Shown in pieces: positions 4,005 to 58,587 of a DNA stretch of 64,000 nt. The notes below the pieces were generated by a model, which did not search any database, was not told the DNA's origin, and saw only the letters and a program-made list of their open reading frames with translations. Source of the stretch: an uncultured Cryomorphaceae bacterium (GTDB lineage: Bacteria > Bacteroidota > Bacteroidia > Flavobacteriales_D > SKUL01); NCBI GenBank assembly GCA_964487545.1, contig CAZARI010000007.1, forward strand, positions 19,634-83,633, read 5' to 3'. Within the stretch, counting starts at the first letter, position 1. Each line of letters opens with the position of its first letter. The translations under genes were made by a program, and so were the position numbers.

Positions 4005-5713
4005 TCCGCCAGCCAGCGCTCCACCTCATGGAGTTGTAGCGCCGGAATTTCCAATTTATTCTTTTTGCGGTAGCCGTTCATTTTTTGATGAATGGCTGTT
4101 GACTTGGTGCTTTTTAGCTTTTCTACCGAATCGAAACCGGCCGCTTCCAGGTGAGGAATCCACTGCTCATCAATGCCCAACATTTTAAAGTCATTAGACG
4201 CATCTGCGCGCACAAACTTTTCGGGACGCATTTGGGGAAAAAACAGCACTTCCTGAATGGAGGTTTGTCCGGTCATCATCATCACGAGCCGGTCCATACC
4301 AATTCCCATTCCGGCTGTTGGGGGCATACCATACTCCAGTGCACGCAAAAAGTCGTGATCGATAAACATGGCTTCGTCGTCGCCGCGTTCCTGTAATTTT
4401 AACTGTGTCTCCAGTCGCTCATGTTGATCAATGGGGTCGTTTAACTCGGAATAGGCGTTGGCGATTTCTGTTTTATTAACAATGAGCTCAAAGCGCTCAG
4501 TGAGTTCGGGATTGGTGCGGTGGCGTTTGCACAGTGGCGACATCTCAATCGGATAATCGGTAATAAACGTGGGCTGAATAAGCTTCGGTTCGCAATACTC
4601 ACCAAATATTTCATCAATCATCTTTCCCTTGCCCATGGAGTCATCCACTTCGATATTCAGTTTTTTGCACACCGAGCGGATTTCCACTTCGTTCATTCCG
4701 CTGATATCGACACCCGCATATTCTTTAATGGCCTGGAGCATTGGCAGACGACGAAACGGAGGGTTAAAATCAATTTCGGTATTTCCGATTTTAACCTTGG
4801 TCGTGCCGTGTACACCCTGCACCACATGTTCGATCATTTTTTCGGTAAAATCCATCATCCAGTTGTAGTCTTTATAGGCTACATAAATCTCCATGATGGT
4901 AAATTCTGGGTTGTGCGTTCGGTCCATTCCCTCGTTGCGGAAGTTTCGCGAAAACTCATACACACCGTCATATCCTCCAACAATCAGTCTTTTTAAGTAA
5001 AGCTCGTTGGCAATCCGCAAGTAGAGCGGAATATCGAGTGCGTTGTGATGGGTAACAAAAGGACGCGCCTGTGCCCCGCCAGGAATGGGTTGCAACACCG
5101 GCGTTTCTACCTCAACATATCCGGCATCGTCAAAATAGTTGCGCATCAGTGAAAAAACCTTTGAGCGTGTTTGGAAAATTTTTCGAACCTGAGGATTGAC
5201 AATCAAATCAACATAGCGCTGGCGGTATCGCATTTCAGGATCGGTAAAGGCATCGTGTATATTTCCTTCGGCATCGCTCTTCACTACTGGCAGGGGCTTT
5301 AAGGCCTTGCTGATGAGCCTCAATTGCTCAACATGCACAGTGGTTTCGCCCACCTGCGTTTTAAACAAATAACCTTCGATGGCCACAAAGTCTCCGTAGT
5401 CGAGAAGTTTCTTGAACACTTCGTTATAACCAGATTTATCTTCTTCAGGACACAGGTCATCGCGCGTAATGTAAATCTGGATTTCGCCTGTGCTGTCGCG
5501 GAGCTGCGCAAAAGAAGCTTTACCCATAATGCGACGGCTCATCAGTCGACCGGCCATTTTCACTTTTTTTCCCTCTTCGTAATTCGCTTTGCAATCGGAA
5601 GAGTACGAGTCAACTTCAACCAGCTCGGCCGGGTAGGCATCAATTCCACGTGCTCTTAACTCGGCGAGGGCATCCCGGCGAAATCTTTCTTGTTCTGATA
5701 ATTGTCGGGTCAT
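4001..5713 (-). CDS. lysS: Lysine--tRNA ligase (class II) with a C-terminal DUF4332-like extension
   Basis: OB-fold (GRLMSRRIMGKASF), motif 2 FRNEGMDRTHNPEF, motif 3 GMPPTAGMGIGMDRL. Likely start MTRQLSEQ at 5713; the longer upstream extension in the track is not LysS-like. Confidence 0.96.
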   Translation of the reverse strand: MTRQLSEQERFRRDALAELRARGIDAYPAELVEVDSYSSDCKANYEEGKKVKMAGRLMSRRIMGKASFAQLRDSTGEIQIYITRDDLCPEEDKSGYNEVFKKLLDYGDFVAIEGYLFKTQVGETTVHVEQLRLISKALKPLPVVKSDAEGNIHDAFTDPEMRYRQRYVDLIVNPQVRKIFQTRSKVFSLMRNYFDDAGYVEVETPVLQPIPGGAQARPFVTHHNALDIPLYLRIANELYLKRLIVGGYDGVYEFSRNFRNEGMDRTHNPEFTIMEIYVAYKDYNWMMDFTEKMIEHVVQGVHGTTKVKIGNTEIDFNPPFRRLPMLQAIKEYAGVDISGMNEVEIRSVCKKLNIEVDDSMGKGKMIDEIFGEYCEPKLIQPTFITDYPIEMSPLCKRHRTNPELTERFELIVNKTEIANAYSELNDPIDQHERLETQLKLQERGDDEAMFIDHDFLRALEYGMPPTAGMGIGMDRLVMMMTGQTSIQEVLFFPQMRPEKFVRADASNDFKMLGIDEQWIPHLEAAGFDSVEKLKSTKSTAIHQKMNGYRKKNKLEIPALQLHEVERWLAD

Positions 5714-5809
5714 TATACTGTAAATTTGCTGCAAAGATAGGAGTTGCACCCGATCGTGCTTAAGCTTGAGCTGCTTAATTTTGTAAATTAGTCCACTTAA
5801 AAAAACGCT

Positions 5810-6799
5810 ATGTTCAAAGAAATGGAAAAACTTATCTCCGGATTTCCGGAGGACATCAAACAAAGTATAACGGAACACCGCAATTTGGGAAAACCCAACC
5901 TTAAACCCTTTAATAAAATCCTCATCACCGGATTGGGTGGCTCGGGTATCGGCGGGTCAATGGTTGCCGAAGCACTGGTGTCAACTGCAAAAATGCCGAT
6001 TGTCGTCAACAAAGACTATTCGGTTCCAGCTTGGGTTGATGAGCAAACGCTGGTTATCGCTAGTTCGTATTCTGGAAATACCGAAGAAACCATTTCGGCA
6101 GCTACGCAGGCCAAAAAGCAGGGAGCACAATTGGCGGCAATCACCTCGGGTGGCCAATTACTGAAAATGGCTGAAGCGGATTCCTTTCCCGTTGTTCATC
6201 TACCCGAAGGTTATCCGCCAAGGGCGGCATTTGGTCACAGTTCGGTGGCACTGTTTGCGTTTCTTGGCGCTTGTGAGGTTGCCCCGTGGAATGCCAATGA
6301 GTTTTTAAAAATGGCCGATCACCTAACCGACAAGCAAGATGATTGCCGCCGCATTGGAAAAGAAATTGCAAAGAAAATTGATGGCCGCATTCCGGTTTTG
6401 TATGCCGCCGAAGGGTTGGGGGCTGTTGCGGTAAGATGGCGCCAACAAATCAACGAAAACGGCAAAAGCCTGTGTTGGCACCACATCGTTCCGGAAATGA
6501 ACCACAACGAATTGGTGGGCTGGGCTGGTGGCGACAACCGATTGGCGGTAATCATGCTCCGCAGCAGTGATGACCACCCGCGCAGTGCACTTCGGATGGA
6601 CCTAAACCGCGACCTGATTTCAGAAAAAACCAATGTAGTAGAAGAAGTTCAGGCCGTTGGCAGCAACCAACTTGAGCGCATGTATTATTTAATTGCTGTG
6701 GGTGACTGGATGTCGCTTTACATTTCTGAAAACCGTGGAGTTGATCCGGTTGAAGTAGATGTCATTTCCCACTTAAAAAGTGAATTGGCCAAGCATTGA
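5810..6799 (+). CDS. Bifunctional phosphoglucose/phosphomannose isomerase (SIS fold)
   Basis: GLGGSGIGG, SSYSGNTEET, RWRQQINENGK and PEMNHNE motifs of the PGI/PMI family. Confidence 0.88.
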   Translation: MFKEMEKLISGFPEDIKQSITEHRNLGKPNLKPFNKILITGLGGSGIGGSMVAEALVSTAKMPIVVNKDYSVPAWVDEQTLVIASSYSGNTEETISAATQAKKQGAQLAAITSGGQLLKMAEADSFPVVHLPEGYPPRAAFGHSSVALFAFLGACEVAPWNANEFLKMADHLTDKQDDCRRIGKEIAKKIDGRIPVLYAAEGLGAVAVRWRQQINENGKSLCWHHIVPEMNHNELVGWAGGDNRLAVIMLRSSDDHPRSALRMDLNRDLISEKTNVVEEVQAVGSNQLERMYYLIAVGDWMSLYISENRGVDPVEVDVISHLKSELAKH

Positions 6800-7506
6800 A
6801 ACCACGCGTCATATTTGAAGATCTCGGCGAAATCGACTATAAAGCAGCATGGGATTATCAGGAGGAGATTTTTAAGCGAACTGTCGATCAAAAGATCTAC
6901 AACAGAACGAATCCCACGGCTGCCGTCGGAACAAAAAGCCACCTTATTTTCTGTGAGCACCCACACGTGTACACGTTGGGGAAAAGTGGAAAAATGCAGC
7001 ATTTGCTGTTGAGCGAGGAAGAACTTAAAACCCACGGCGCAAGCTACTATCCGATTAACCGTGGTGGAGACATCACGTATCACGGGCCGGGTCAAATTGT
7101 GGGCTATCCCATTCTGGATCTCGATCTGTTTTTTACCGACATGCACCGCTATTTGCGCTCGTTGGAAGAAGCGGTAATCCGAACACTGAGTGATTATGGC
7201 ATTTCAGCCTACCGGCTCGAAGGTTATACTGGCGTATGGCTTGACCCCGACAATCCCATTCGCGCGAGAAAAATCTGCGCGATGGGAGTAAAATGCAGTC
7301 GCTGGGTTACCATGCACGGTTTTGCGTTTAATGTCAACACCAACCTCAGTTACTTCGGGCATATTATTCCGTGTGGCATTGATGACAAAGCGGTGACGAG
7401 CATGGAAAAAGAGCTCGATGAGAAACAAGATATCGCTGCGGTGAAAAAAGTGTTGATGAATCATCTTTCCGATATCTTTGGTTGGGAGTGGGAATCTGAA
7501 CCTTAA
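6796..7506 (+). CDS. lipB: Lipoyl(octanoyl) transferase
   Basis: EHPHVYTLGK, NRGGDITYHGPGQ, KICAMG, HGFAFNV, IIPCGI. The TTG start overlaps the upstream stop. Confidence 0.95.
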   Translation: MKPRVIFEDLGEIDYKAAWDYQEEIFKRTVDQKIYNRTNPTAAVGTKSHLIFCEHPHVYTLGKSGKMQHLLLSEEELKTHGASYYPINRGGDITYHGPGQIVGYPILDLDLFFTDMHRYLRSLEEAVIRTLSDYGISAYRLEGYTGVWLDPDNPIRARKICAMGVKCSRWVTMHGFAFNVNTNLSYFGHIIPCGIDDKAVTSMEKELDEKQDIAAVKKVLMNHLSDIFGWEWESEP

Positions 7507-7513
7507 AACGGCT

Positions 7514-8662
7514 ATGGTGAAAAAATTGCTCATTGTATTGTTGGTCATCATTGGCTTGGGAGTAACCGCTCTATATCTATCCGGAAACCAGCACATCATT
7601 CAGGCGGTGAAAAACACCTACCTCGTTGGACAAAGCGGACCTTCGATTGACGATTTCAATCTTTTTTCTCACCGGCGGATTGCATCGGCAGAGCACACAA
7701 AGACCCTACCGATGCACAGCGAAAAAAAGCAACTGTCAAAACAAGCGCTTCGGTGGCTCGATTCCACACAAACAGCAACGTTTCTGGTTGTTTACCGCGA
7801 TTCTATTCTGGCCGAACATTATTTTCAGGATTACGTTCCGGCCTTTTTGCCCAACACCTTTTCGGTGGCCAAATCGATGGTGAGTATGTGCATTGGGGTG
7901 TTGTTGCGCGAGGGGAAAATCAATGGACTAGATGAGCCGGCATCTACATACATTGCTGAGCTGGCAGAAAAAGGATACGATAAGATAACCATTCGGCACC
8001 TGCTTCAGATGAGCTCTGGAATGGGATTTGACGAAGACTACAAAAACCCGTTTGGCTATCAGGCCAAGGTGTATTACGGCGATCAACTCAGGGCAAATAC
8101 TTTGGCCTTTGACGCAATAGACGAGCCAGGAGAAAAATGGTTCTACGCCGGGGGAAACACAGTGCTGCTGGCCTTGATTGTAGAAGCCGCAAGCGGTCAA
8201 AAACTGGCACACTACTTTGCAGAAAAAATATGGCAGCCCATCGGAGCGGAGGCTGATGCGTGGTGGACGATTGAGGACAACGGATTGGAGCGTTCGTCGT
8301 GCTGCTTTTACGCCATCACCCGCGATCTTGCGCGGCTGGGTATGCTTTATCAAAATGGTGGTAAATGGAACGGTCGCGATATCGTTTCCGAACAGTTTGT
8401 GCAGGAATCGATAACACCGGTAGCCATCCCCGACCGTTATGGAGAAACCGCGTTTCAATATGGCTACCAGTGGTGGTTGGGACAATTCAACGGTCACCAG
8501 TTTTATCAAGCGCAGGGCATGTTGGGGCAGTATATCATCGTGGTTCCCGAATTGGAATTGGTTATTGTGCGCACCGGACACCACCGCAGCATGGAGAAAC
8601 AAAATGGCTTGCCCACGGATTGTTATCAGTACATAGCCATTGCAAATAATTTATTGTCATGA
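7514..8662 (+). CDS. Serine hydrolase, beta-lactamase class C-like family
   Basis: N-terminal membrane anchor, SxxK motif (FSVAKS), LLQMSSG, ARLG and GMLGQ motifs. Confidence 0.85.
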   Translation: MVKKLLIVLLVIIGLGVTALYLSGNQHIIQAVKNTYLVGQSGPSIDDFNLFSHRRIASAEHTKTLPMHSEKKQLSKQALRWLDSTQTATFLVVYRDSILAEHYFQDYVPAFLPNTFSVAKSMVSMCIGVLLREGKINGLDEPASTYIAELAEKGYDKITIRHLLQMSSGMGFDEDYKNPFGYQAKVYYGDQLRANTLAFDAIDEPGEKWFYAGGNTVLLALIVEAASGQKLAHYFAEKIWQPIGAEADAWWTIEDNGLERSSCCFYAITRDLARLGMLYQNGGKWNGRDIVSEQFVQESITPVAIPDRYGETAFQYGYQWWLGQFNGHQFYQAQGMLGQYIIVVPELELVIVRTGHHRSMEKQNGLPTDCYQYIAIANNLLS

Positions 8663-9063
8663 TGAGCGACATCACGCCGCCCGAGGTGAGCGACATTGCC
8701 ATGGCCATTATTCCGGAAGTTACCAGTGAAAATGAAACGGAGTGGCACAGCTATCTAATCAACATGAAGCCGGTGGCCATTGAAGGCGTATTGGTCAGTT
8801 CGAGTGGATATGGATTGGTAGAAAAAGAAAAAGTAAAAACCTCGCAGTTGAGGTATTTTTTGGATGTTGTAGAAGCAGAAAGCTTTCGGAAAGTAGAACT
8901 CATTCCCGACGAGTTGCACGGCCTCACCAACCAATATTGGGTGAGCTTTTTTCTTGACGGGGTGATGTTCGATAAAAAATACCTCTTTGTACCTGACAGT
9001 ATCAAAGAAGAAAACTTAACGCAGGTGCCATTGATCAACCAAAAGGGGGTTTTGATTATTTAA
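8659..9063 (+). CDS. Conserved Bacteroidota hypothetical protein
   Basis: Operonic 134-aa ORF overlapping the upstream stop; NQYWVSFF...DKKYLF resembles a family common in this phylum. Confidence 0.7.
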   Translation: MMSDITPPEVSDIAMAIIPEVTSENETEWHSYLINMKPVAIEGVLVSSSGYGLVEKEKVKTSQLRYFLDVVEAESFRKVELIPDELHGLTNQYWVSFFLDGVMFDKKYLFVPDSIKEENLTQVPLINQKGVLII

Positions 9064-9108
9064 TTGAAATCGACATCTTTAACTCTTCAGACAACCAACT
9101 GCTAACCT

Positions 9109-9822
9109 ATGCTCTACCAAATCTCATCCGACAACATTCTCTTCATCGATATTGAAACGGTGCCGGTTCACTATCGGTTCGAAGAGTTGAATCCGGAAAT
9201 GCAACAGCTCTGGGATGAAAAAACCCGTTTTTTTCAGCAACGTGAAGAAACCGATGCTGCCGGCGTTTATCAACGATCGGGGGTGTATGCCGAATTTGCC
9301 AAAGTGATTTGCATTTCGCTCGGATATGTTCACCACACCAGTCACCGTGTGCTTCGAATCACCACCTTTTCATCTGATAACGAACAGGAACTACTCGAAT
9401 CATTTTGCAGCCTCATCAACAGTCGTTTCTCGTCTAATTATTATTTGTGCGGACACAACATCAAAGAATTTGACATTCCGTTTTTGTGCCGGCGAATGCT
9501 CATCAACGGAATCAAACTGCCCAACATGTTGAACCTTGCTGGCAAAAAACCGTGGGACATCAAGCACTTAGACACCATGGAACTCTGGAAATTTGGCGAT
9601 TATAAGCACTACACTTCGCTAAACCTGCTCGCACATGTCTTTGGCATTCCTTCGCCAAAAGACGATATCAGCGGTGCCGATGTTGCACGGGTATATTACG
9701 AAGATCAAGATCTCGAAAAAATAGTGCGTTATTGCGAAAAAGATGTCGTAGCCGTTGCCCAACTCCTTTTCAGAATGAAGGGCGAACCGCTAATTGATGA
9801 TAAAAACATCGTTGTTGTTTGA
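9109..9822 (+). CDS. 3'-5' exonuclease, PolB proofreading-like (DEDD)
   Basis: ExoI DIET, ExoII GHNIKEFDIPFL, ExoIII YCEKDV. Confidence 0.88.
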   Translation: MLYQISSDNILFIDIETVPVHYRFEELNPEMQQLWDEKTRFFQQREETDAAGVYQRSGVYAEFAKVICISLGYVHHTSHRVLRITTFSSDNEQELLESFCSLINSRFSSNYYLCGHNIKEFDIPFLCRRMLINGIKLPNMLNLAGKKPWDIKHLDTMELWKFGDYKHYTSLNLLAHVFGIPSPKDDISGADVARVYYEDQDLEKIVRYCEKDVVAVAQLLFRMKGEPLIDDKNIVVV

Positions 9823-9868
9823 CGGCTTGCACCGCTTTTCTAACTTTAGCCACTTTCTTGTTTTCACC

Positions 9869-10405
9869 ATGATTCTACGCCCGGCTTTCTGTATCATTTC
9901 CCTTTTACTGATGGTTTTCTTATCGGGTTGTGGAACAGACAAACTCCCAAGTCCTTCTCAACCTGAACTGCTGACCGCAAAAATATTTGGCGACAACGGT
10001 CATTTTCGCAGCAATAAAATCGGTAATTCGCTGGAGGAAGTTGTAGAACACGACCGCGATTTTCTTTTTAAAAGAAGGAGTGAAGAACTGGGTTATTCGA
10101 TACCGCTCGCTGCAAACGACAGTGCCCATTACGACGTTTCGTATTATTTTAAGCGAAATAGACTGGTGGAAATTCAAGTGGATGTTTTGCTGGGCACCGA
10201 AAAGAAAACAGAAAAACTCTTGGGCGCCTTTGTGGGTCATCTTCGCGAAAAATATGGCGATCCATCGGAAAAAACAGGCTATGCGTATTGGGAAATCACC
10301 AATCAACAACAGCGTCTGGAAATCACTCTTCGCGATGTAAGCCGGGAGCACAACCGGCCATTTTTGTCATTAAACTTTGTTGAACCCGACAGATTTAACC
10401 CGTAA
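9869..10405 (+). CDS. Hypothetical lipoprotein
   Basis: From MILRPAF: hydrophobic signal ending in lipobox LSGC; its stop overlaps the next start. Confidence 0.7.
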   Translation: MILRPAFCIISLLLMVFLSGCGTDKLPSPSQPELLTAKIFGDNGHFRSNKIGNSLEEVVEHDRDFLFKRRSEELGYSIPLAANDSAHYDVSYYFKRNRLVEIQVDVLLGTEKKTEKLLGAFVGHLREKYGDPSEKTGYAYWEITNQQQRLEITLRDVSREHNRPFLSLNFVEPDRFNP

Positions 10406-12177
10406 TGTCAGAAAACAAACAGCTACCCTTGCTCCACATCAAGGATCTACAGGTAACCTTTCGCACAGAAGAAGCCGAAGTGGTGGCTGTGGATGGCATC
10501 AATCTGACGCTTTTTCCGGGTGAAACCGTGGGCGTGGTGGGAGAATCGGGTTCGGGCAAAAGCGTAACGAGCCTGGCAGCCATGCGGCTCATTCCCGATC
10601 CTCCGGGAAAAATCACATCAGGTGCTATCCTGTATTCGGGCCGAGGCGAAACCGTAGATCTGCTATCCCTTTCGGAAAACGAAATGCGAAGTTATCGCGG
10701 CAATGATATCGCAATGATTTTTCAAGAACCGATGACGTCGTTGAATCCAGTGATGAAATGCGGCCAGCAAGTAAGCGAAGCCATTGTGCTTCATCAGAAA
10801 GTTTCCAAAAAAGAAGCGCGACAAAAAACAATTGAGCTGTTTAAGGAAGTGCTGCTGCCGCGCCCCGAAGCCATGTACGACGCCTACCCGCACCAACTAT
10901 CGGGCGGACAAAAACAGCGGGTGATGATTGCCATGGCACTGTCGTGTCAGCCCTCGGTGCTCATTGCCGATGAACCAACCACTGCACTTGATGTAACCGT
11001 GCAAAAAACCATTCTGGAACTGCTTAACGAGCTGCAGACCAAGCGAAATATGTCAGTGATTTTCATCACCCACGATTTGGGCGTAGTGGCCGAAATTGCC
11101 GACCGCGTGGTGGTGATGTATCGCGGAAACGTGGTGGAAGAAGGCAACGTGCAACAACTGTTCGAAAACCCACAACACCCTTACACAAAAGGATTGCTGG
11201 CTTGTCGTCCGCCGCTCGACAAACGCCTTAAAAAACTGCCGGTAATTGCCGATTTTCTCGATCGCCAGGAACCTACTGACAACGAACCTACGGTTAAAGC
11301 TGTGCAACACGACCTGGAATACACTTCCGAAGAAATCGCACAACACCGTAAAAAACTCTACGAACAGGAACCACTGCTGAGCGTGCGCAATCTGCAAAAA
11401 TGGTTTCCGGTAAAAAAAGGCCTGTTCAACCGCACTGTGGATCACATCAAGGCCGTGGACGATGTTTCCTTTGACGTTTTTCCCGGAGAAACCTTGGGAC
11501 TCGTGGGCGAATCAGGCTGTGGCAAAACCACCCTCGGCCGCACAATTTTAAAACTCACCAAACCCACTTCGGGCGAAATTTGGTACCGAAATCGCAACAT
11601 CACCGACTTTACGGCTGGTGAGATGCGCCCCATGCGGAAACACCTGCAAATCATTTTTCAGGACCCGTATTCATCACTCAATCCGCGGCTCACCGTGGGC
11701 GATGCCCTGATGGAACCAATGAAAGTTCACGGCATTCTCGACAGTTATCGGCAGCGAAAAGATAAGGTGATGGAGTTGTTAGAAAAAGTAAACCTGCACC
11801 CCGATCATTTCAGAAGATACCCGCACGAATTTTCGGGTGGCCAGCGCCAGCGGATTGTCATTGCCCGCACGCTCACACTTAATCCGGAGTTTATTATTTG
11901 TGACGAATCGGTGTCGGCGCTCGATGTTTCGGTGCAGGCTCAGGTGCTCAACCTACTCAACGACCTGAAAAAGGAATTCAATTTCACCTACATCTTTATT
12001 TCTCACGATTTGTCGGTGGTGAAATTTATGAGCGATCGGATGGTGGTGATGAACGGTGGTAAGATTGAGGAAATGGGCATTGCAGATGAGATTTATCGTC
12101 ACCCCAAATCGCCCTACACCCAGCGGCTAATTGACGCTATTCCCGGAACATCTCTCACAAAATCAGGCACCTTTTAG
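10405..12177 (+). CDS. ABC transporter ATP-binding protein with two fused OppD/OppF-type ATPase domains
   Basis: Two Walker A motifs ([16 protein letters not shown]), two signatures ([16 protein letters not shown]), HPYTKGLL and SPYTQRLI. Confidence 0.93.
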
Positions 12178-12258: not shown

Positions 12259-13995
12259 ATGACGAAAAGTCGCATCCAAAAAGCACTGCTGATTCTTAGC
12301 CTATTTTCCTGCTTGAGCATTTCCGCTCAGCAGCTTCAACTCGGTGCAGATCACGTGTATATTGATCACGAACTGAAAATGGTGGTGAGCAATCAAGACA
12401 TTGAATTGCTGAACTACCTCTATCCGTTTGGAATAACCTCCATCGAGCTCAACGGCCATTCTTACGATTTTTTATCAACGGTCAATCAACTCGAAACCGG
12501 CACCAGTTACGCCATTGAGGCTGACGAGAGTGTGTATCAATTGTATTTCACTTCACTCCCCGTTGTATCGATTGAGATGGATGGCATGCCGGTAAATTTT
12601 GAACGCAGACTCGCCACGGCATCCATTACCTCTTCTGACGGTGTTACCATACACGCTGACTTGGGTATTAACATCCGCGGCGGATACTCGCAATTTCTGC
12701 CAAAAAAATCGTATCGGATGGAGTTTGTATCGCTGGCAAACGACACGATGGTTAACCGCAACGTAAAGCTGCTTGACCTGCGCAATGACGATGACTGGCT
12801 GTTACTACCCATGTTCAACGAACCACTAAGGTTGAGAAATGCTGTTGGACACCGGCTCTGGGAAGATATGCACACTTTAAAGTATCAGCAAGAGGAACCA
12901 ACAGCGCTGCCAGGCACCCGTGCGCGCTACGTAGAATTAATTTTGAACGACAAATATCGCGGCGTTTATCTGCTCACAGAAAGGGTGGATCGCAAGCAGC
13001 TTCAATTGAAAAAATACAGTCAGGGCCATGATATGGAAGGTGAGCTCTATAAAGGAAGCGATTATGCTGCGGGCACCGTGACCTTCGATTTCCTGGCCTT
13101 TTACAACAACAACTCCCGCACTTGGGATGGATTTGAAAAAAAGTACCCACTGCGCGAAATGACAACCGACTGGAGTGGGCTTTACGAGCTGATTTCGGTG
13201 ATATTACAAACATCTGATTCGGTGTTCAGTCAGCAAATAAACAGTTATTTCGATCTGGACAATGCGGTAGATTATTTTCTATTTCTCAATTTGCTATATG
13301 CTCAAGACAACACCGGCAAAAACCTGTTTGTGGCTCGCTACAGTGCCGAGACCCCATTCTTTTTTGTTCCCTGGGATCTGGACGGCATTCTCGGTATTGA
13401 TTGGAAAAGCGATTTTCTGGGCATCCGTACCGACCTGCTCAGCAACGGCTTGTTTGACCGACTGGTGGTGAACTGATCGACAACGGGTTTCGGACTTAAG
13501 CTGAAAACGCGGTGGAGTGAACTGCGCGATTCATTGATTACCCCAGAAACCCTAACCGACAGAATTCTCCAGCAGCACGAATTGCTGATAAACAACGGTG
13601 TGTATGAGCGTGAACAAAAAGCATGGCCGGGATATAGTTATGATGCCGATATTTTAGATTACACCTTGCACTGGATAGAAAGCCGGTTTGCCTATCTCGA
13701 TGATTTCATTGCGGAATTTTGTGACGAAAACACACACTATGGTCCGCTGCGAACCATTGAACCGCAGGTGGATATCTACCCTGTTCCGACCACCCGTCAG
13801 TTGGGTGTACGGCATGTGGGCTTTGAGCCAGGCAGCCGGTATGTGCTGCGCGATCAATATGGAAGAATAGTTAAGCAGGGATTACTGGGCGTTCACACCA
13901 CCATTATCGACACAGGAATGCTGTCGGCCGGGGTTTATTTCATCGACTTGGAAGATGGTGTTAGGTTGGAAAGGTTGCGTTGGATGAAGCTATAG
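12259..13995 (+). pseudogene. CotH kinase-family protein with T9SS C-terminal domain, interrupted by one in-frame TGA at 13474-13476
   Basis: Track ORFs 12259..13476 and 13534..13995 share a frame and read ...FDRLVVN*STTGFGLKLKTRWSELRDSL... with no other stop. CotH motifs PKKSYRMEF, DNTGKNLF, VPWDLD; C-terminal IYPVPT...GRIV...LSAGVYFI. Confidence 0.8.
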
Positions 13996-18138: not shown

Positions 18139-18621
18139 TTATCCTCCAGCAGGCTCAATTCGCACGCCTACATCAATGATGTGCTGAAGGGTATCCTCGC
18201 GCATGGCGTGCTCAATCTCGATGCGGTATTTGCCCATGAGCGGGAATTTTTTCTGATACTGGTACAGCACTTTGTTGGAGATTATCTTGTTGTCCACAAT
18301 AAAACCGTTTCCCGAACCGAGCCACCTGCCGGAATGGTCGGTGAGAATGCACTCAATGGTATCCTTCGATTTGCGGTTATTGGGGAAATAGGTATGAACA
18401 AACAAATACAGGTTGCTGTACTGGTAATCCTCGGTGTTGCGAAGGGTGACGAAAAAGTGTTGTGGGGAAAGGGTATCCGTCACTTCAAACTCACCTGAAA
18501 ACCGCTCTCCACGAGGCCAATCACCACCCGGTATTTCTGCCACAAACACGTGTGTAGGCGGTGTTTCACACGCAGCAAACAACATCCAGCCAGGCAACAG
18601 CAGCAGGATTAAGCGCTTCAT
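18139..18621 (-). CDS. gldH: Gliding motility lipoprotein GldH
   Basis: Lipobox FAAC, LRNTEDYQYSNLYL, DTIEC...GRWLGSG, IEHAMR...IIDVG. Confidence 0.9.
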   Translation of the reverse strand: MKRLILLLLPGWMLFAACETPPTHVFVAEIPGGDWPRGERFSGEFEVTDTLSPQHFFVTLRNTEDYQYSNLYLFVHTYFPNNRKSKDTIECILTDHSGRWLGSGNGFIVDNKIISNKVLYQYQKKFPLMGKYRIEIEHAMREDTLQHIIDVGVRIEPAGG

Positions 18622-22284: not shown

Positions 22285-24657
22285 TCAATCTGCCAGTTTA
22301 ATGGCTTTTTTCACGAGTAGCTCTCCGTTTACGTATAGGGCGTAATGATACAACCCCGCTGGTAGGCCGGATGCATTCCACTCATAACGGTAGGTACCCA
22401 CTGCTTGTTCGGCTTCTACGATGGTTGTTATGGGTTTTCCCGTTTTATCAAATACTTTCAATACCACTTTGCCTTGTTGCTCAAGGGTATAACTAATGGT
22501 GGTTTGGCTCCTAAAGGGGTTTGGCGTGTTTTGATGTAACTCATTCACTGCCTTTTCTATTACACCTGGAGTTTCTTCATTAGGATGGAAGCTTGGTGCC
22601 GTTCTGTCGGTATTACAACAATGGTTGATTTGTTGTTGAAGTTCATTCAATTGCTCCATGATCTGCGCCATTGCTTCGTTTTGTGATTCAATGATGGATT
22701 GTTGCTCTTTGACTGCTGAAATGAGATAGGGAATTAACCCTGTGTAATTGACCGACTGAAATTCAATTGCGGCAGAAATTTCATTTCCCAAAGTGTCGAA
22801 CATTGCCGGTGCGGTGGTCTGTTTTACCAATTGAGGCAATACCTCTGCCAGTTCTTGAGCAATAACACCCTGTTGTTCTCCCTCGGGCAAGTTCAATTGA
22901 CTATATTCTTCTGTTAAAAAAGAATAGCTTTTGGGTTCAATCTGCTGTATTACTTCTAATGCCCCTTCTATGGGTTCAATGTTTTGTTTTAGTGTCTCGT
23001 CAGAACTCGTCCAAACTCCTGCTGTGCAATGAGTAGCTCCAACAAAGAAACCTGCCCAGTTTTCTACCGAAGCGCCACCCGCTGAACCATGAACACCGTA
23101 TGCGTGGGTTCCACCTCCGGCTCTGCCAAGCACAGCGAAAACTTGTTGGTTCGGACTGATATTGCTATTTCCTGCCAAAGCAAAAAATGCCCCCCCTATA
23201 GAATGTTCAACAAAAGAGTTAGGTTGAGAAATTGCCCACCCTTGCACGCCAAAATTTTGGAGTGTTGTGCCTGATTCTGCAGCATAGGCTCTAAAATCTC
23301 CGGCATAATTTATTCGAGCATTATAAACCTCTCCTCTTACTCCGCGGGCCTCGGGAAAATTAGGGTATCGTTTAACTGCTGAATATGTGCCCGTGACTAC
23401 ACCAAAAACATTATCACTTGGCGATTCCGTCCATATAACCCGCGCTCCAAATTCTTTTGGATTTCCTTGATTATCTCCATGAAATACATCAAGTTTGGCC
23501 TGAGGGGTTGCTACGCCAATTCCAACATGTCCACCTGGGTAGCAATCATTTCCAACGCCAGTAACAACATCATCAATACCCGGCACATTCTCGATTACTT
23601 CCCAATCGCAATCTGAAGTTCCATTTTCAATTTCAGACCATTCTCCTTGTCCATTTAAAAACATTGTTTCGCTATTAGGAAAGTCCAACCTACCCAGAAA
23701 ATTATCTGCTTCTCCCGAATTAACCTCATCAACTTGGTATCCGATGACTAATGTTTTAGGTGGTTCGTCGGGCAGGTTTCGAATTCGGGTGTAACCTTTG
23801 CCCACATCCAATGCAGTACCCACCATGGGGTCGGTTGCGTTGGAGGGATCATCAAAAAAACCGACGGCAAGCGCACGTAGAGATCCATTTGTCCGAGGCA
23901 CTATGTGCAGGTTGCCATGATTTGACACTTGGAAATCGGCATTGGTTCCGGTATTAACGTTTGTACTGCGTATTCGTGTAATTCGAAACTGCGGGTCATT
24001 TCTTTGCTTGATAACATCTAAGGTGCGGTGAGGTTGAAAGGTGTTATTCCAGTAACTGCCAAAACCTACGTGGCCATTACCGATCATACGTCCTAATTCT
24101 ACGCCGTCGTAGTCAGAAGCGTCAAAAACATCAGAGCTAATGGTGGTGGTGCCGTTGGCAACTCCTGCCGAGAATATAAACCGTAATACATCGGGGCCGC
24201 TCTCCGGTGATTTATTATCGCCCCATGCTATTACGGCATCGGTCAGGCTTTCATTATTGGCCTTCGGGCCAACGTACATAAAATCCCGATTATGGGTAAA
24301 AGTAATTCCAGCCTTCATCCAATCTCGGTACCCCCAGGGCTGTGGCCCCCAAGTGTTGCCTTCGCCGTAAAGGTGAAGCAATGAAAAGGGCTTGTGGTTA
24401 AACGCGGTAGGATCACTACTCAACAGCAAAAAACCGTCGTGATTGTAAGTATAGCCGTCTACGGTATTGATGCCGTTTTGCATCAGTTGCATATACGTGG
24501 TGTTGTTGGTGCGGAACTCGAGGTTCTGGCCGGCAGCATTGTAGCCTATAAATTTGCCTGTTCCCGGATTATTATTACCGCTTGTTGACTGTCCTGCCAA
24601 ATGTTGGGTAAAAGCTAATAATAATATGGCCAAACCAATGTGGGTGAAGTTTTTCAT
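22285..24657 (-). CDS. T9SS-secreted tail-fibre-like protein with peptidase S74 intramolecular chaperone
   Basis: Sec signal peptide, Gly-rich beta repeats (GVRGEV, GVQGWA, GVHGSA), S74 start WTSSDETLKQNI, GVIAQE, VNYTGLIPYLISAVKEQQ, a coiled coil, then T9SS CTD QNTPNPF...LPAGLYHYAL...KKAIK. Confidence 0.85.
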   Translation of the reverse strand: MKNFTHIGLAILLLAFTQHLAGQSTSGNNNPGTGKFIGYNAAGQNLEFRTNNTTYMQLMQNGINTVDGYTYNHDGFLLLSSDPTAFNHKPFSLLHLYGEGNTWGPQPWGYRDWMKAGITFTHNRDFMYVGPKANNESLTDAVIAWGDNKSPESGPDVLRFIFSAGVANGTTTISSDVFDASDYDGVELGRMIGNGHVGFGSYWNNTFQPHRTLDVIKQRNDPQFRITRIRSTNVNTGTNADFQVSNHGNLHIVPRTNGSLRALAVGFFDDPSNATDPMVGTALDVGKGYTRIRNLPDEPPKTLVIGYQVDEVNSGEADNFLGRLDFPNSETMFLNGQGEWSEIENGTSDCDWEVIENVPGIDDVVTGVGNDCYPGGHVGIGVATPQAKLDVFHGDNQGNPKEFGARVIWTESPSDNVFGVVTGTYSAVKRYPNFPEARGVRGEVYNARINYAGDFRAYAAESGTTLQNFGVQGWAISQPNSFVEHSIGGAFFALAGNSNISPNQQVFAVLGRAGGGTHAYGVHGSAGGASVENWAGFFVGATHCTAGVWTSSDETLKQNIEPIEGALEVIQQIEPKSYSFLTEEYSQLNLPEGEQQGVIAQELAEVLPQLVKQTTAPAMFDTLGNEISAAIEFQSVNYTGLIPYLISAVKEQQSIIESQNEAMAQIMEQLNELQQQINHCCNTDRTAPSFHPNEETPGVIEKAVNELHQNTPNPFRSQTTISYTLEQQGKVVLKVFDKTGKPITTIVEAEQAVGTYRYEWNASGLPAGLYHYALYVNGELLVKKAIKLAD

Positions 24658-25652
24658 TGCCTGTAGATTTTATGATTAGTGATTGTTGAATTTGCTTTAA
24701 TTCGAAGCACGTAAACCCCGCTTGCAAGGTAGCCTGTATCGATGCGTAATGAAGGCGAATCAACATTGGTCACCTCTGTCACAAGGCGGCCTGTCATATC
24801 ATAGATCGCAGCCGATTCTATCGGAATGCTTTTATTTTTAAGGTCTATATTCACGTAATCTTTAGCAGGATTGGGATATACGGCATACCCCTTTTCCATA
24901 CCTGACGGTGAAGCACTCAGCAGGTAATCGCAGCCTGAGGGAGTTGGAGATATACATACATTTTCGATGTAGTAATATCCCCAACAGGACACTTCGGATT
25001 CATTTAAAATGAGAATGTCTGTGTTGTCATCATCAAAGAAGTTTCCGATGGCGAGCCAGTTGTATTCCTGGTCGGCTGTTACCCAACCCTCAATTTTTGT
25101 CCAATAGGTGGTGTCGGACAGAATTTCCGAATAGTCGATATGCGCGAAATTATCCGGCATCAGCCAGTCGCTTGAAGGTTGATAATGGTATTCAGGGTCT
25201 TTAAAAAAACGCAAGCCTATGTGATTTGTGGCGCACCAAGCCCATGCCTCCATTCCACCATCGTATAACGATGCATGAAAAAAGACATAATAGCTCTGGC
25301 CGATGGTAAGCGGCTCTGATAATTCAATGGCTATATACTCACGAGCCTGAGGTGTAAAATCCTCATACGTAGCTAATCCAGCATAGGCTGCTCCCGATAT
25401 TGGAAATTGATATCCAAATGCATTTGAAGGAACTCCTGCAAATCCTTCTATATCATCGCTGCAAGGATGAAAATAATCAGGTGACCACCCCCAGGAATGC
25501 CAGCCCACAACATTAACCCCGTCTCCATAAATGCCTGCGGTGCTGAAAGGGCATTCTGTGTACTCTTCAAAGCTTGGATTGGGCACAAGGTTTTGCGAAA
25601 ATCCCTGAAACATCGAAATAAACATTATAGCAATAAGGGCAAACGCTTTCAT
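24654..25652 (-). CDS. T9SS type A sorting domain protein (NLVPNPSFE family), function unknown
   Basis: Start MKAFALIAI at 25652 with signal peptide, QNLVPNPSFEEYTECP, YYYIENVC, CTD VYPNPA...LASGVYVL...KIYRQ. Its TGA overlaps the next ATG (ATGA). Confidence 0.85.
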   Translation of the reverse strand: MKAFALIAIMFISMFQGFSQNLVPNPSFEEYTECPFSTAGIYGDGVNVVGWHSWGWSPDYFHPCSDDIEGFAGVPSNAFGYQFPISGAAYAGLATYEDFTPQAREYIAIELSEPLTIGQSYYVFFHASLYDGGMEAWAWCATNHIGLRFFKDPEYHYQPSSDWLMPDNFAHIDYSEILSDTTYWTKIEGWVTADQEYNWLAIGNFFDDDNTDILILNESEVSCWGYYYIENVCISPTPSGCDYLLSASPSGMEKGYAVYPNPAKDYVNIDLKNKSIPIESAAIYDMTGRLVTEVTNVDSPSLRIDTGYLASGVYVLRIKANSTITNHKIYRQ

Positions 25653-25870: not shown

Positions 25871-25887
25871 GTAAGCCCCCGACTAAC
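25871..25887 (+). repeat. IS66 terminal inverted repeat GTAAGCCCCCGACTAAC
   Basis: Pairs with 28170-28186 (reverse complement GTATCCCCCCGACTAAC). The tnpC stop codon lies inside this TIR. Confidence 0.92.
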
Positions 25888-27451
25888 TACGCCCTGATTT
25901 TTCCCCTTGATATGCGTATGTGTCTTTTGATGGGAGCTGAAGGTTTTGCGGGAAGAGCTCATAGAGTTTGTTGACTTTGTGGTCTGCGATACGACCGAGT
26001 ACTTCTGTGAGCCAGGCCATAGGCTCTACGCCGTTTAGTTTGCATGTGCCTGTAAAGGTGTAGAACATGGCAGATCGACTGGCACCTTGATGCGAACTGG
26101 CAAAGAGGTAGTTCTTTCTTCCGAGTGCGTTTAGCCTGATGGTGTTTTCTACCAGGTTGTTGTCGATGAGCAGTTCGCCGTTATAGAGGTAATTTTGAAG
26201 GCTGTCCCAAAGATTTATTGCATAAGTAAACGCTTTGCCAATAGAGCTTTTGGGTAGTACGTGTTTGTTTTCAGCGGATATCCACTTGCCAAGCTCATTG
26301 AGGATAGGTAGAGATTTTTCAAGCCGAAGCTCCTTTCGCTGTTCTGGGCTAAGCAGCTTGACTTCACGCTCGACAGCATAGATCTGCTGTATGCGCACAA
26401 GAGCATATTGGGCACGGGCCTTGTCTTGGTCTAAGGCCTGCTCAAAATACCTGCGCGCATGCGCCCAGCATCCAAGGTGCACGATTTCTTCCTTTTGGGA
26501 ATATTCATTGTATACTCTGTATCCATCGGTTTGCAAGTAGCCCTGGTAATGTTGAAGTATCTTTTGGGGAGCGGGTTTACCGCGCCCCCGGTGATAGTCG
26601 AACACTACCATGCGTTTGGGGGGCGAGTGGTACACCCAGTAGTAACCCATGTGGCTCTTGCCTTTTTTGGTTTTGTCAAGCACCCTGGTAGGTGTCTCGT
26701 CTACCTGAAGGTAACCGTCAAGTTTTACCACATCAACCATGGCATCGTAGAGTGGTTCGAGTAATGTGCCCAGCTGCGCTACCCATCCATCTATGGTAGA
26801 TGGGGCAATGTGTATTGCTGCCCGCTTGAAGATTTGTTGCTGGCGGTACAGCGGCAGGTGGTCTACGTATTTGTTGATGAGTATGGAGCTGAGCAAGGTG
26901 TTTCCCGCAAGGCATTTTTCGATAGGCCGTGATGGCATATCGCCGATGAGCACCCCCTGACCACCGGGCAGGGCGTATTTGTTGCGTACCAGTACCAGCT
27001 TAAAAAACCGGGCAGGGGCCAACTCAAGTATTTCGGTGCGTTCTTCGCCTATTTTTACCATGCCTTCTACAGGAGTTGTTGGGTCTATCACCACTTCATG
27101 TACAGGCATATCTGCGGGCAGAGGATTGCGTCCTTTGTGATTTTCGTTCTTTTTGCGGGTATAGGTAATGGTTTCTTTAACGGGCTTATCGCCGTTGGTG
27201 CTTTGGCTTTTGTTAGTTAGTTCTTCAAAGGGCAAGTTGAGCTGATTGGCGATAACGATGTTTTCGGCCATGAAGCGCTCGCTTTTTGTACCAAAGTGCA
27301 TGCGGCGAAGGCGGTTTATCAGATTCTCCATATAGGTAATCATCGCTTCTGAACGCTCGTCTTTTGCTTGTGCCTTTTCAATGGCAGCATTTTGTTGTTT
27401 TACCAACGCTAAGAGTTGCTCTTTTGATAGGTTTTCAAGCTGCACTTCCAT
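25883..27451 (-). CDS. tnpC: IS66 DDE transposase TnpC
   Basis: Coiled-coil N-terminus, HFGTKSE, KYVDHLPLYRQ, QVDETP, LQTDGY, GCWAHARR, IDNNLVENTIR, GRKNYLF. Confidence 0.95.
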   Translation of the reverse strand: MEVQLENLSKEQLLALVKQQNAAIEKAQAKDERSEAMITYMENLINRLRRMHFGTKSERFMAENIVIANQLNLPFEELTNKSQSTNGDKPVKETITYTRKKNENHKGRNPLPADMPVHEVVIDPTTPVEGMVKIGEERTEILELAPARFFKLVLVRNKYALPGGQGVLIGDMPSRPIEKCLAGNTLLSSILINKYVDHLPLYRQQQIFKRAAIHIAPSTIDGWVAQLGTLLEPLYDAMVDVVKLDGYLQVDETPTRVLDKTKKGKSHMGYYWVYHSPPKRMVVFDYHRGRGKPAPQKILQHYQGYLQTDGYRVYNEYSQKEEIVHLGCWAHARRYFEQALDQDKARAQYALVRIQQIYAVEREVKLLSPEQRKELRLEKSLPILNELGKWISAENKHVLPKSSIGKAFTYAINLWDSLQNYLYNGELLIDNNLVENTIRLNALGRKNYLFASSHQGASRSAMFYTFTGTCKLNGVEPMAWLTEVLGRIADHKVNKLYELFPQNLQLPSKDTYAYQGEKSGRS

Positions 27452-27512
27452 GCTGTGAAGATACGCCAAAAGTTAGGTGTGCAAGATGTTTTAAGCATCA
27501 GTAATCAACACT

Positions 27513-27869
27513 TTATCTGGATAAAAAGCGCTTTCTTTTCTTGGTTTTTTCAAAATCAATACCTCGTAAAATCATGAATAATTCTTCTTTGGTGAGTTCA
27601 CTATTTGGAGCGTTAAGTCGGGCTGTTGGTCGTTTGAAAGTTCCGAGCTCCAAGCGTTTGTGAAAAAGCGCCAGTCCGTCAATATTCCAATGAAGCACTT
27701 TAATGCGAGTGCGCTGCCTGTTCATAAAAACAAACAGATAACCCAGGCGTGGATCCAGCTCCATGTGTTCCAAAACCAATCCGTAAAGTCCATCAAATCC
27801 CTTGCGCATGTCGGTGGGTTGAGCGTATAAAAACACTTTGGTGGCTTCCTCCAGACCAAACAAACTCAT
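27513..27869 (-). CDS. tnpB: IS66 accessory protein TnpB
   Basis: PTDMRKGFDGL, LFVFMNR, KVLHW..DG..LF.KRLE.GTF. Confidence 0.95.
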   Translation of the reverse strand: MSLFGLEEATKVFLYAQPTDMRKGFDGLYGLVLEHMELDPRLGYLFVFMNRQRTRIKVLHWNIDGLALFHKRLELGTFKRPTARLNAPNSELTKEELFMILRGIDFEKTKKRKRFLSR

Positions 27870-28114
27870 GCAAACACCAAAATTTTAACGCCCGATGGGG
27901 CTTCAATCTCCAATACTTTACCTAGCTTCACTTCGGAAAACCCAACCTCCTTAAAGCCTGTTTCGCCTGCTACAGATTGAGCGGCTTTCCATTTTGCAAT
28001 CCAGTAATTGAATTTTGCTTCGCTGTATTGCTTGCCATTTAAAAAATCAGATTTCCTAACCCCAGAGGCCAACCAGTCCTGAACCTCAGAGAACATTTCT
28101 TCTTGTAAACTCAT
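27866..28114 (-). CDS. tnpA: IS66 accessory protein TnpA
   Basis: 82-aa ORF at the first position in the IS, W..SG...DF...FNYW pattern, ATGA overlap with tnpB. Confidence 0.8.
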   Translation of the reverse strand: MSLQEEMFSEVQDWLASGVRKSDFLNGKQYSEAKFNYWIAKWKAAQSVAGETGFKEVGFSEVKLGKVLEIEAPSGVKILVFA

Positions 28115-28321: not shown

Positions 28322-28438
28322 TTAATTTTTTTTCATCCAGTCGCGGTAACCATTCTGCTGGGGGTTGCTTCCACCGTTATCTCCGTTCAGGTGCAGCAGC
28401 GAAAAAGGCGATTGTACCACCTGATTGATGCCAATAGG
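28322..28438 (-). pseudogene. Second, shorter paralog relic in a different frame (relic 2)
   Basis: Manual translation gives PIGINQVVQSPFSLLHLNGDNGGSNPQQNGYRDWMKKN*, repeating the PFSLLHL...GYRDWMK motif. It overlaps the tail of relic 1 out of frame. Confidence 0.72.
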
Positions 28439-28830
28439 GCGAACCCTGAGATGCCATAATTTCAAGTGTGTTTTGGGGTTGGGTTCCGGCGGTAAAAAAA
28501 TCGCCTATTCCCATCCTGCCGTTGTCTTGTCCGTCCACCCACATTCTGGCAAGTTCAAAACCATCGTTCGTAGAAGCCAAACCATTTCCGGGCGCTGCGG
28601 TAAATACAAACCGCAACAGATCGCCATTCTTCTTTGGTCCGACATACATGAAATCCTTATTGTGTGTAAAGGTTATTCCATATCGCATCCAATCGCGATA
28701 ACCATTATGTAGGGTTATTCCTGACTTATCCCCATTTAAATGCATTAACGAAAATTGTCTTACCATTGGTCCAAAACACCCAATGTAAATGATAAAACTT
28801 GTGCATAAAAAACCAGTTGGATGGCCAATT
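28377..28830 (-). pseudogene. Truncated paralog of the fibre protein N-terminus (relic 1)
   Basis: FSLMHL...GYRDWMRYGITFTHNKDFMYVGPK...LLRFVF aligns with FSLLHL...GYRDWMKAGITFTHNRDFMYVGPK...VLRFIF in 22285..24657. It has no signal peptide, an apparent internal deletion, and no S74 or CTD. Confidence 0.8.
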
Positions 28831-56976: not shown

Positions 56977-58587
56977 TTACTTCTTCACAAACTTAAACCG
57001 CGCTTTTGGCTGTCCATCCTTTAGCAGGTGACCGAAGTACATTCCGGAAGAAAGAAATGTAACATCCAGCTGATGACGCGTTCCGGAAAGCGATTGATTA
57101 TATACCGGTTTGCCGGTAATATCATAAACAGTCACAGCATCGGTATTTTCTGCATTGAACCGCAACTGATCATTTGCCGGGACGGGATAAACTGACACTT
57201 CAGAAAGTTCGGACAATTCCCTGACGCTCAAAATTTCACTCACATCGGGAACATAACCAAACTCTTCGGTTCCTTTGCGGTAGCCAACCATGGTGGCCAT
57301 CGAATGGTTTAAACCCGAGTATGTTGCAACACTCAACACGCCCAATCCTTCACCGAAAGCAGTGGCAGAAGAAATATTAGCACAATAAGCTGAAGAAAAT
57401 TCCATAGTAGTAGTATCTCCAATATGAAGAGCGGAACTAAAATTGAAGCCCTGGGTATTAAAAAACTGCTGAAAAACTACTTCGTTCTCAGGATAGCCTG
57501 CCGACATGTCATTTCCAAAGTTTTCTGCCGCGGCGATCAGCGCAGGTGAAAATGCATCACTCCCTCCGATCATCTTGACGGCTCTGGAATTTAAGGTATC
57601 AATATAAACGTTTTTATGATAGCCCGGCCAGCCAAAATCAGACGAAAGCCACAGCAAGTTTTCTTCTTCCATTTCTTCAGCCAAAAAGTAGCTGCCGGGT
57701 ACAGCGTCGGCTATATGAGCTTCTTCAATATTGAGTGCTACACTATATGTTCCTGCGCCAAAAAAAGGAGCGGTTTCAACCAAAATATAATTTCCGGAGA
57801 AATTCTGTAGTTCCCATGTTCTTCGATAGCTGGCACGGTGAAAATCAATATTGATGACTCCATCCCCACTCTCAGTTACACTGGTAATTTCAATCCGCTG
57901 CAATGTCTTTATATACTCATCGCTTGTTGCACTATAATTTTTATAATACACAAACACATCTCCCACTTCAAAATCAAAAATTTCGTGGCGGCCAAGGGGA
58001 TAGGTACCCACTTGCCGATCGGAAATTCCGCTTAAGCTAAAGTCATCTCCCTCGGTTGATTCAAAAGCGATCAAGCCATGATTTTGACTCAATTGAACTG
58101 TTCGGTCATCGCTAAGCCCAATCATTTTTACACTATCGGGTTGGCCCAATACTTCAGTATAAACGATATCCGAAACGGTAGCGGTAATCGTTTCTTCACC
58201 TGTTTCGGCAAAAACCCACGATGCACCGACTGGCGCGAGGGTGTGAATCGAAAAAGTGTCGGGGTTCTGAAACTGAAAGACGCCGTCTTCGGATGGAATG
58301 ACTTCAAACTGCAAAAAGCCGGCTTCTAAAATGGCTGTCTCCGCATCCGGTTCAGAACAAAATATAGACTCTGCCGGTATTTCCGGGTGAATTTCAGCAA
58401 ACAGGTTGGTATACCAAACCGTATCCCCTTCTACCATCGCCACAGAATCTACCCGAATCCCTGTCAAATCCGCTCCGCCGGAATCGAAATAAAAAGTTTC
58501 ATCGACATTCAATGGACTCCAGTTTTGAGCGCTGAGGACATTACCAATTAAAAGGGAAAACAGGAAAAGGATAAAATTAGTTTTCAT
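56977..58587 (-). CDS. T9SS type A sorting domain protein, function unknown
   Basis: Start MKTNFILF, signal peptide ending AQ-NW, acidic beta-rich body, CTD VYPVPAND...LSSGMYF...KFVKK. Confidence 0.85.
   Translation of the reverse strand: MKTNFILFLFSLLIGNVLSAQNWSPLNVDETFYFDSGGADLTGIRVDSVAMVEGDTVWYTNLFAEIHPEIPAESIFCSEPDAETAILEAGFLQFEVIPSEDGVFQFQNPDTFSIHTLAPVGASWVFAETGEETITATVSDIVYTEVLGQPDSVKMIGLSDDRTVQLSQNHGLIAFESTEGDDFSLSGISDRQVGTYPLGRHEIFDFEVGDVFVYYKNYSATSDEYIKTLQRIEITSVTESGDGVINIDFHRASYRRTWELQNFSGNYILVETAPFFGAGTYSVALNIEEAHIADAVPGSYFLAEEMEEENLLWLSSDFGWPGYHKNVYIDTLNSRAVKMIGGSDAFSPALIAAAENFGNDMSAGYPENEVVFQQFFNTQGFNFSSALHIGDTTTMEFSSAYCANISSATAFGEGLGVLSVATYSGLNHSMATMVGYRKGTEEFGYVPDVSEILSVRELSELSEVSVYPVPANDQLRFNAENTDAVTVYDITGKPVYNQSLSGTRHQLDVTFLSSGMYFGHLLKDGQPKARFKFVKK

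Follow-up and report, generated by a model that had tools for sequence, protein, structure and literature searches.

A complete phage-type fibre chaperone with a conserved Ser/Lys dyad precedes the type IX sorting domain of a predicted secreted protein from a Cryomorphaceae bacterium

The DNA studied here, 64,000 nucleotides from an uncultured Cryomorphaceae bacterium (GenBank assembly GCA_964487545.1, contig CAZARI010000007.1, positions 19,634 to 83,633; hereafter, the window), contains a minus-strand open reading frame (ORF) at 22285..24657 whose 790-amino-acid (aa) product joins a chaperone of phage tail fibres to a type IX secretion system (T9SS) sorting signal. The protein begins with a signal peptide and a family-specific N-terminal domain, continues with a Gly-rich beta region, a Peptidase_S74 chaperone, a coiled coil and a Cys-Cys (CC) motif, and ends in a T9SS type A C-terminal sorting domain (CTD). 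The Sec signal peptide (residues 1-22, 24592..24657, MKNFTHIGLAILLLAFTQHLAG|Q) was recognised by inspection of the sequence and a homologue alignment (A1): the hydrophobic N-terminus ends in ..AG|Q, and the +1 Gln is conserved among homologues. The N-terminal passenger domain spans residues 25-345 (23623..24585), and the Gly-enriched beta region spans residues 400-551 (23005..23460). The sequence WTSSDETLK begins at residue 549, and the Ser/Lys dyad proposed in the original prediction, Ser552 (23002-23004) and Lys557 (22987-22989) five residues apart, is exact to the base; Ser552 is the predicted nucleophile and Lys557 the general base. The chaperone covers residues 552-682 (22612..23004), and its C-terminal part is a long helix at residues 641-681 (22615..22737), a predicted trimeric coiled coil closed by the Cys680-Cys681 motif (22615..22620). 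A low-confidence linker (residues 682-705, 22543..22614) leads to the CTD (residues 706-790, 22288..22542). The order of S74 body, coiled coil and CTD is confirmed by hidden Markov models (HMMs), AlphaFold2 (AF2) and Foldseek. The AF2 run, a full-length monomer with 22 sequences, had a mean pLDDT of 51.9 and was confident only for the S74 core, the helix at 641-681 and a sandwich at 710-790; confidence was low in the N-terminal domain, and the passenger is not interpretable.

The chaperone is identified by several independent comparisons. Pfam Peptidase_S74 (PF13884) clearly matches residues 552-612 (E=3.8e-14, 53.1 bits against a cut-off of 22), and alignments to residues ~485-682 come from more than 20 tail-fibre families of PHROG (best 9.8e-21). 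These alignments start at residues ~485-540, reach nearly to the end of the phage profiles (e.g., 870-1039 of 1043 and 295-444 of 449) and stop at residues ~660-682, the end of the coiled coil. The module formed by S74 domain, coiled coil and CTD, taken as a profile, aligns with the MyRF ICA domain over its full length, helix included (7dc3_A, 6.2e-9), and matches phage gp37 (6f45_A, 4.6e-10), which is also the sole PDB match when searching with the single protein sequence. With the AF2 model as the query, the best Foldseek match is again the MyRF ICA domain (7dc3, TM 0.61-0.67 on target), the endoNF chaperone (3gw6) being weaker. When residues 535-790 were compared by tblastn with 50,697 phage records, 539 of these matched, all within the first ~150 query residues, and not one of them covered the CTD part. 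Because the PHROG, phage tblastn and MyRF profile alignments all end there, we limit the chaperone to residues 552-~682: it is a complete phage-type intramolecular chaperone, and the later residues are extra. The S74 domain thus does not end the polypeptide; the 108 residues that follow it hold the CC motif, the linker of ~25 residues and the CTD, the last a cellular addition that phage fibres do not have.

The evidence for the sorting domain depends on the model used. The Por_Secre_tail profile of Pfam marginally missed its cut-off (residues 712-786, 26.4 bits against 27), whereas the corresponding NCBIfam model for T9SS type A sorting domains, TIGR04183, narrowly passed (residues 711-787, 23.4 bits against 23); with a CTD profile derived from the homologues, the match is at 3.4e-37. 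In the AF2 model, residues 710-790 form a seven-strand sandwich (pLDDT ~88-92), and the Foldseek matches of this part include mirolase (8qb1) and the CTD of NucA in the translocon (8glk_D). T9SS cargo needs its CTD for export, loses it to PorU and is then released or attached to A-LPS (PMC5445135, PMC10202324). The core T9SS genes sprA, porV and gldKLMN are not found within the window, but a gliding lipoprotein gene, gldH (18139-18621, minus strand, Pfam), points to a host among the gliding, T9SS-bearing Bacteroidota, and five further Por_Secre_tail cargo genes lie elsewhere in the window.

The catalytic residues are kept with great regularity. Ser552, Asp553 and Lys557 are invariant in 22 homologues of 27-46% identity, and we scanned 172 relatives with local HMMs built for the S74 and CTD parts. 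The S74 domain was found in 161 of them, both domains in 158 and a CTD at the extreme C-terminus in 162; the distance from Ser to CTD is 139-202 residues. Among the 161 S74-bearing relatives, Ser, Asp and Lys are intact in all 160 complete terminal S74 copies and in 85 of the 86 internal ones (245 of 246 overall), a conservation slightly inflated by our having picked the relatives with a dyad-containing profile. There was thus no sign of the pair being lost from most homologues. An S587A mutant of the MyRF ICA domain could be expressed and gave crystals, so the fold needs no Ser (PMC8326128), and with a Ser that is dispensable for folding and yet nearly invariant, the conservation argues for catalysis. 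The dyad corresponds to MyRF S587/K592 and endoNF S911/K916; in both of these, only the trimer is cleaved, and it is the C-terminal coiled coil that brings the trimer about (PMC8326128). Cleavage of MYRF yields an N-terminal trimer of residues 1-577 and a C-terminal fragment that starts at the catalytic S578, freeing the passenger from its membrane anchor (PMC3742443). By analogy, the scissile bond here would be Ser551|Ser552 (23002..23007), one residue before the Ser552/Asp553 position first suggested.

The CC motif at the end of the helix is invariant in alignment A2; of the 156 module-bearing relatives, 115 have it, at a distance of ~27 residues from the CTD that follows. It resembles the interchain cystine knots by which the trimers of collagen III and matrilin are stapled, and it could join the three chaperone–CTD stubs covalently.

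The module occurs well beyond this gene. Run against 1.84 billion representatives of 50%-identity clusters, an HMM spanning S74 domain, coiled coil and CTD matched 5,088 clusters at E<=1e-30, a total to be read as an order of magnitude and not a count, as 5 of the 150 best matches were CTD-like repeat proteins without S74. The 150th best match still scored 3.5e-79, and among the top 150, the whole profile was usually covered at the C-terminus of proteins of 233-1,951 aa. In our genome scan, the module turned up behind passengers that are short and unrelated to one another, in genomes of Chitinophagales, Flavobacteriales, Bacteroidales, Saprospiraceae, Chryseobacterium and Ignavibacteria; a profile search of genome contigs with alignment A2 gave mostly CTD-only matches and no full-length family member. 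One Saprospiraceae locus (L011) has three consecutive small S74 ORFs (6614-7738, 7898-9097 and 9377-10273), mini-fibres arrayed in tandem. The contig L090, Cryomorphaceae-like and widely sampled, has a fibre gene (5966-7795) that stops behind the S74 region, with the CTD in an ORF of its own of 146 aa (7868-8308), either a frameshift or a natural split. Many relatives, among them P0029, P0032, P0035, P0131 and 80 others, carry an additional internal S74 copy that has an intact dyad and a short helix only and is followed by more fibre; P0131 contains collagen-like GPT repeats besides its two S74 domains.

The passenger (residues 1-546) matched nothing in Pfam (E<=10) or in PDB sequence searches, and the N-terminal domain is duplicated in some relatives. 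The Gly-rich beta repeats of the original prediction are loosely true only: the Gly content is 15% in residues 400-551 against 10.5% for the whole protein, and a [FYRA]-G-V-x-[GT] motif recurs at residues 418, 438, 469, 520 and 546, but the confidence of the AF2 monomer is low at 345-553. The last ~65 residues of the beta region align with the pre-cleavage part of phage tail-fibre profiles.

Directly upstream lies a gene for a 332-aa protein (24654..25652, minus strand) whose stop codon overlaps the fibre ATG by 4 nt. It encodes a signal peptide, a jelly roll similar to carbohydrate-binding modules (CBMs) at residues ~20-245 (24918-25595) and a T9SS CTD of its own (24657-24887; Por_Secre_tail, 54 bits). 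The pairing is conserved. The same 4-nt overlap joins partner and fibre genes in six further loci, L081 (partner at 4964-6004), L082 (3184-4185 and 4946-6004), L087 (1177-2403), L088 (5001-5978), L089 (two tandem cassettes; 5001-5936 and 9573-10508) and L090 (5001-5969), and the genes are adjacent with a short gap in L083 (5041-5997) and L085 (3195-4130 and 4988-5989). Starting from fibre homologues, we found the partner with the 4-nt overlap at P0006, P0008 and P0002 and with a short gap at P0004 and P0020, the other flanks being unrelated; the N-terminally truncated P0017 has no intact partner gene upstream. Starting from the other side, the partner homologues P0244, P0264 and P0229 are each followed by an S74 protein with the same overlap. 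Beside S74–CTD proteins without this N-terminal passenger domain, the partner HMM matched no ORF, and the partner therefore goes with the passenger and not with the module. The upstream partner proteins are ~310-350 aa long and 26-50% identical pairwise, with an invariant QNLVPNPSFE N-terminus and conserved Cys residues; the family has 346 database matches, and one of the L085 copies bears a type B CTD (CHU_C). The non-CTD part of the partner gave nothing in Pfam (E<=10) or PDB sequence searches. Its AF2 model (pLDDT 91.6) consists of a jelly roll and the CTD, and in Foldseek the jelly roll resembles CBM4, CBM4-2 and CBM16 and the Epf and Kgp-K3 adhesin domains with moderate TM scores. On the strength of this model, the partner is predicted to be a CBM-like lectin domain, itself T9SS cargo.

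If the dyad is active, it would cut the fibre from the very domain needed for its export, and the paradox of export and anchoring noted in the original prediction is in that sense real: the separation of passenger and CTD follows from what has been published on S74/ICA domains (PMC8326128, PMC3742443) and on the T9SS (PMC5445135). We suspect, at slightly less than even confidence, that the gene encodes a T9SS-exported, self-assembling trimeric fibre that cuts itself from a disposable export tag and works with a partner. The Sec system would bring the chain to the periplasm, and the type A CTD would carry it through the SprA/PorV translocon; the S74/ICA domain and the coiled coil would nucleate the trimer from its C-terminal end, as in phage fibres and MYRF, and the CC motif may staple the three chains by disulphide. 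After trimer folding, the Ser552/Lys557 dyad would cut the Ser551|Ser552 bond and part the mature fibre (approximately residues 23-551) from a stub of chaperone, coiled coil and CTD, which would either stay with the secretion and attachment machinery or be disposed of by it. With the fibre parted from the stub, the CTD would act solely as a disposable export tag, and the fibre would not be anchored through a C-terminus made by PorU. Assembly and cleavage are most likely completed at or after translocation. The free fibre likely works with its translationally coupled partner, being held on the surface or capped by it; for the earlier suggestion that the trimer is held by a partner, the co-encoded T9SS protein conserved across loci provides a concrete candidate, and it is its role in holding the fibre that we infer. 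Timing control of an ICA domain would have a precedent, as one report (PMC12803276) describes a juxtamembrane region and a partner protein that gate MYRF cleavage.

Several observations weigh against this proposal, in addition to the marginal Pfam score of the sorting domain and the choice of relatives noted above. Folding of T9SS cargo is believed to happen in the periplasm (PMC5445135), which would favour cleavage before export. A second, internal S74 domain in 84 of the 161 relatives is awkward for a simple cut and release. A distant Bacteroidales relative (L005, 7623-8930), also an S74–CC–CTD protein, has Asp in place of the Ser and Glu in place of the following Asp, with the Lys kept, and is by its sequence a natural dyad-loss variant. 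AF2 could not model the passenger, so that a trimeric beta structure upstream of the cut is putative. Finally, we sought transcript or proteome data and found none, the search of sequencing runs locating the sequence in soil and compost metagenome DNA only and giving no useful RNA, and for every member processing is a prediction.

The main rival, which we consider unlikely but take seriously, moves assembly and cleavage into the periplasm: a stapled trimer would be cut there and exported as a noncovalent complex of fibre and stub that dissociates only outside. In E. coli, yeast and HeLa cells, the ICA domain cuts autonomously and constitutively (PMC3742443), and secretion mutants build up folded T9SS cargo in their periplasm (PMC5445135). 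In relatives that have two S74 domains, the fragments need to be kept together anyway, and the CC motif is frequent among the relatives, as given above. The periplasm could plausibly oxidise this motif. On the other hand, a folded trimer with three N-terminal domains of ~320 aa is bulky cargo, the cleavage products separate in phage proteins and MYRF (PMC3742443), and there is no sign here of a persistent interface between fibre and chaperone. A smaller possibility, improbable in our view, is that no cleavage takes place: S74 would serve as a permanent trimerisation and folding module, PorU would remove the CTD and the whole fibre, chaperone included, would be anchored on the surface. This removes the topological problem and agrees with the internal S74 domain lying mid-fibre in 84 relatives and with the Ser-less L005, but the retention of Ser and Lys in 245 of 246 complete copies, in a fold that needs no Ser (PMC8326128), speaks for catalysis.

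The gene context speaks to the remaining alternative. One flank of the fibre gene has PBP1, GldH, PSP1, holB and pgk, and the other has the partner gene, an IS66 element, cvpA, a cyclophilin gene and pheS. Neither the 40 ORFs scanned across the window (Pfam) nor nine homologous loci contain phage or extracellular contractile injection system (eCIS) genes (sheath, tube, baseplate, capsid), and the earlier statement that no prophage genes are nearby holds: the window is filled with housekeeping genes, GldH, T9SS cargo and one IS66, and the flanks of the homologous loci vary, with housekeeping genes in each. A prophage, tailocin or contractile-injection-system tail fibre lying here by chance is scarcely credible, since its strong similarity to phage tail-fibre C-termini, the reported occurrence of PF13884 on eCIS fibres (bioRxiv 10.1101/2020.09.22.308684) and the presence of S74 and CTD together in 3 of the 80 best IMG/VR loci are set against a protein with a Sec signal peptide and a T9SS CTD, against differing housekeeping flanks and against the fact that one of the three "viral" loci (L108) itself sits among cellular genes. 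Prophage, eCIS and artefact readings were all rejected on gene context and on the recurrence of the architecture.

Self-cleavage and release at or after export, the reading that we prefer, can be set beside several known systems. Phage endosialidase and tail-fibre chaperones (endoNF S911/K916, T5 pb1, T-even gp37) share the domain by HMM, profile and fold, the S-D-x-x-x-K dyad, the beta-rich and Gly-rich stretch before it and the coiled coil after it; the phage chaperone, however, ends its protein and acts in the host cytoplasm, whereas here the chain has ~108 more residues and a signal peptide and is encoded by a chromosomal gene. The closest precedent for the layout is MYRF (MrfA), where an ICA domain likewise stands between a functional passenger at the N-terminus and an element for targeting or anchoring at the C-terminus, an arrangement thus already known, and where trimerisation-dependent self-cleavage frees the passenger (PMC3742443, PMC8326128), as is only predicted here. 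MYRF differs in being eukaryotic, in its DNA-binding passenger, in the transmembrane anchor that takes the place of a secretion signal and in its membrane topology. The T9SS type A cargo proteins (gingipains, mirolase, NucA) have the same Sec signal peptide and C-terminal Ig-like CTD but lose the CTD only, through PorU (PMC5445135), while a second, autocatalytic cut is predicted here ~155 residues upstream of the CTD. The gp37 and gp38 of phages T2 and S16 similarly pair an S74-motif fibre with a binding protein from a gene of its own; the likeness is no more than an analogy, the partner here being a CBM-like jelly roll with its own CTD, encoded upstream and without sequence relation to gp38. 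Type V secretion system (T5SS) autotransporters such as SPATEs combine a C-terminal export module, an adjacent segment that nucleates folding and autoproteolytic release of the passenger after export. Their autochaperone has been reviewed (PMC5767081), and they share the concept only: the folds are unrelated, and secretion system and chemistry differ.

The domesticated phage-fibre secretion route of the original prediction stands in part: the architecture is real and not that of a prophage, but it is shared by ~5,000 clusters and has a precedent in MYRF. The single parts are already known, and automated annotation marks both domains; what has apparently not been described before is their joining in one protein, the abundance of this layout, the CC motif, the relatives with two S74 domains and the cassette with the partner. 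Our literature searches for S74, ICA or PF13884 together with the T9SS or Bacteroidetes located no paper on the S74–CTD architecture. The sole co-mention was the outer-membrane vesicle proteome of Tannerella forsythia, a T9SS model organism, which lists a 362-aa "tail fiber domain-containing protein" (WP_046825792.1; PMC10682907) that may have the S74–CTD layout.

A conserved autoprotease stands immediately upstream of the CTD in a large class of cargo, thousands of clusters in the Bacteroidota and their relatives, that seems not to have been described. Should the protease be active, the export tag is left by a chemistry other than that of PorU, and trimer assembly must be timed and placed relative to outer-membrane transport; the question bears on the folding and oligomeric state in which T9SS cargo crosses the translocon. 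It would also mean that, after MYRF, the phage ICA domain was independently domesticated a second time as a switch for release from an anchor, and if both S74 copies cut, the double-S74 relatives would be secreted polyproteins giving several fibre pieces. The conserved lectin-like partner suggests a two-part adhesin. A bolder version, possible though rather doubtful, is that S74–CTD proteins represent a second, PorU-independent route of T9SS maturation, with chains that are exported by their CTDs, trimerise beyond the cytoplasm on their built-in phage chaperone and cut themselves off a disulphide-stapled chaperone–CTD stub, and in which the fibre of this family docks with the co-secreted CBM-like lectin as a two-component surface or secreted adhesin; if so, the system would be a cellular counterpart of the phage fibre and its adhesin.

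Elsewhere in the window, a complete-looking IS66 element of three ORFs (an 82-aa ORF, TnpB_IS66 and a DDE_Tnp_IS66 transposase; 25883-28114, minus strand) is inserted directly upstream of the cassette. Two short minus-strand ORFs at 28322-28766 match the N-terminal domain of the passenger (SPFSLLHLNGDN..GYRDWM and MYVGPK..; HMM E=4e-27 and 1e-13) and are decayed remnants of a second copy of the fibre gene, lying between cvpA and the IS66 element. A CotH kinase-family protein is encoded on the plus strand at 12259-13476. The five further T9SS type A cargo genes form a cluster, all on the minus strand (49803-51704, 54094-56412, 56977-58641, 58990-60561 and 60515-63991); their products comprise an FG-GAP/ASPIC protein, a protein combining F5/8-type-C and PNGase F domains, a right-handed beta-helix protein and two proteins without another domain.

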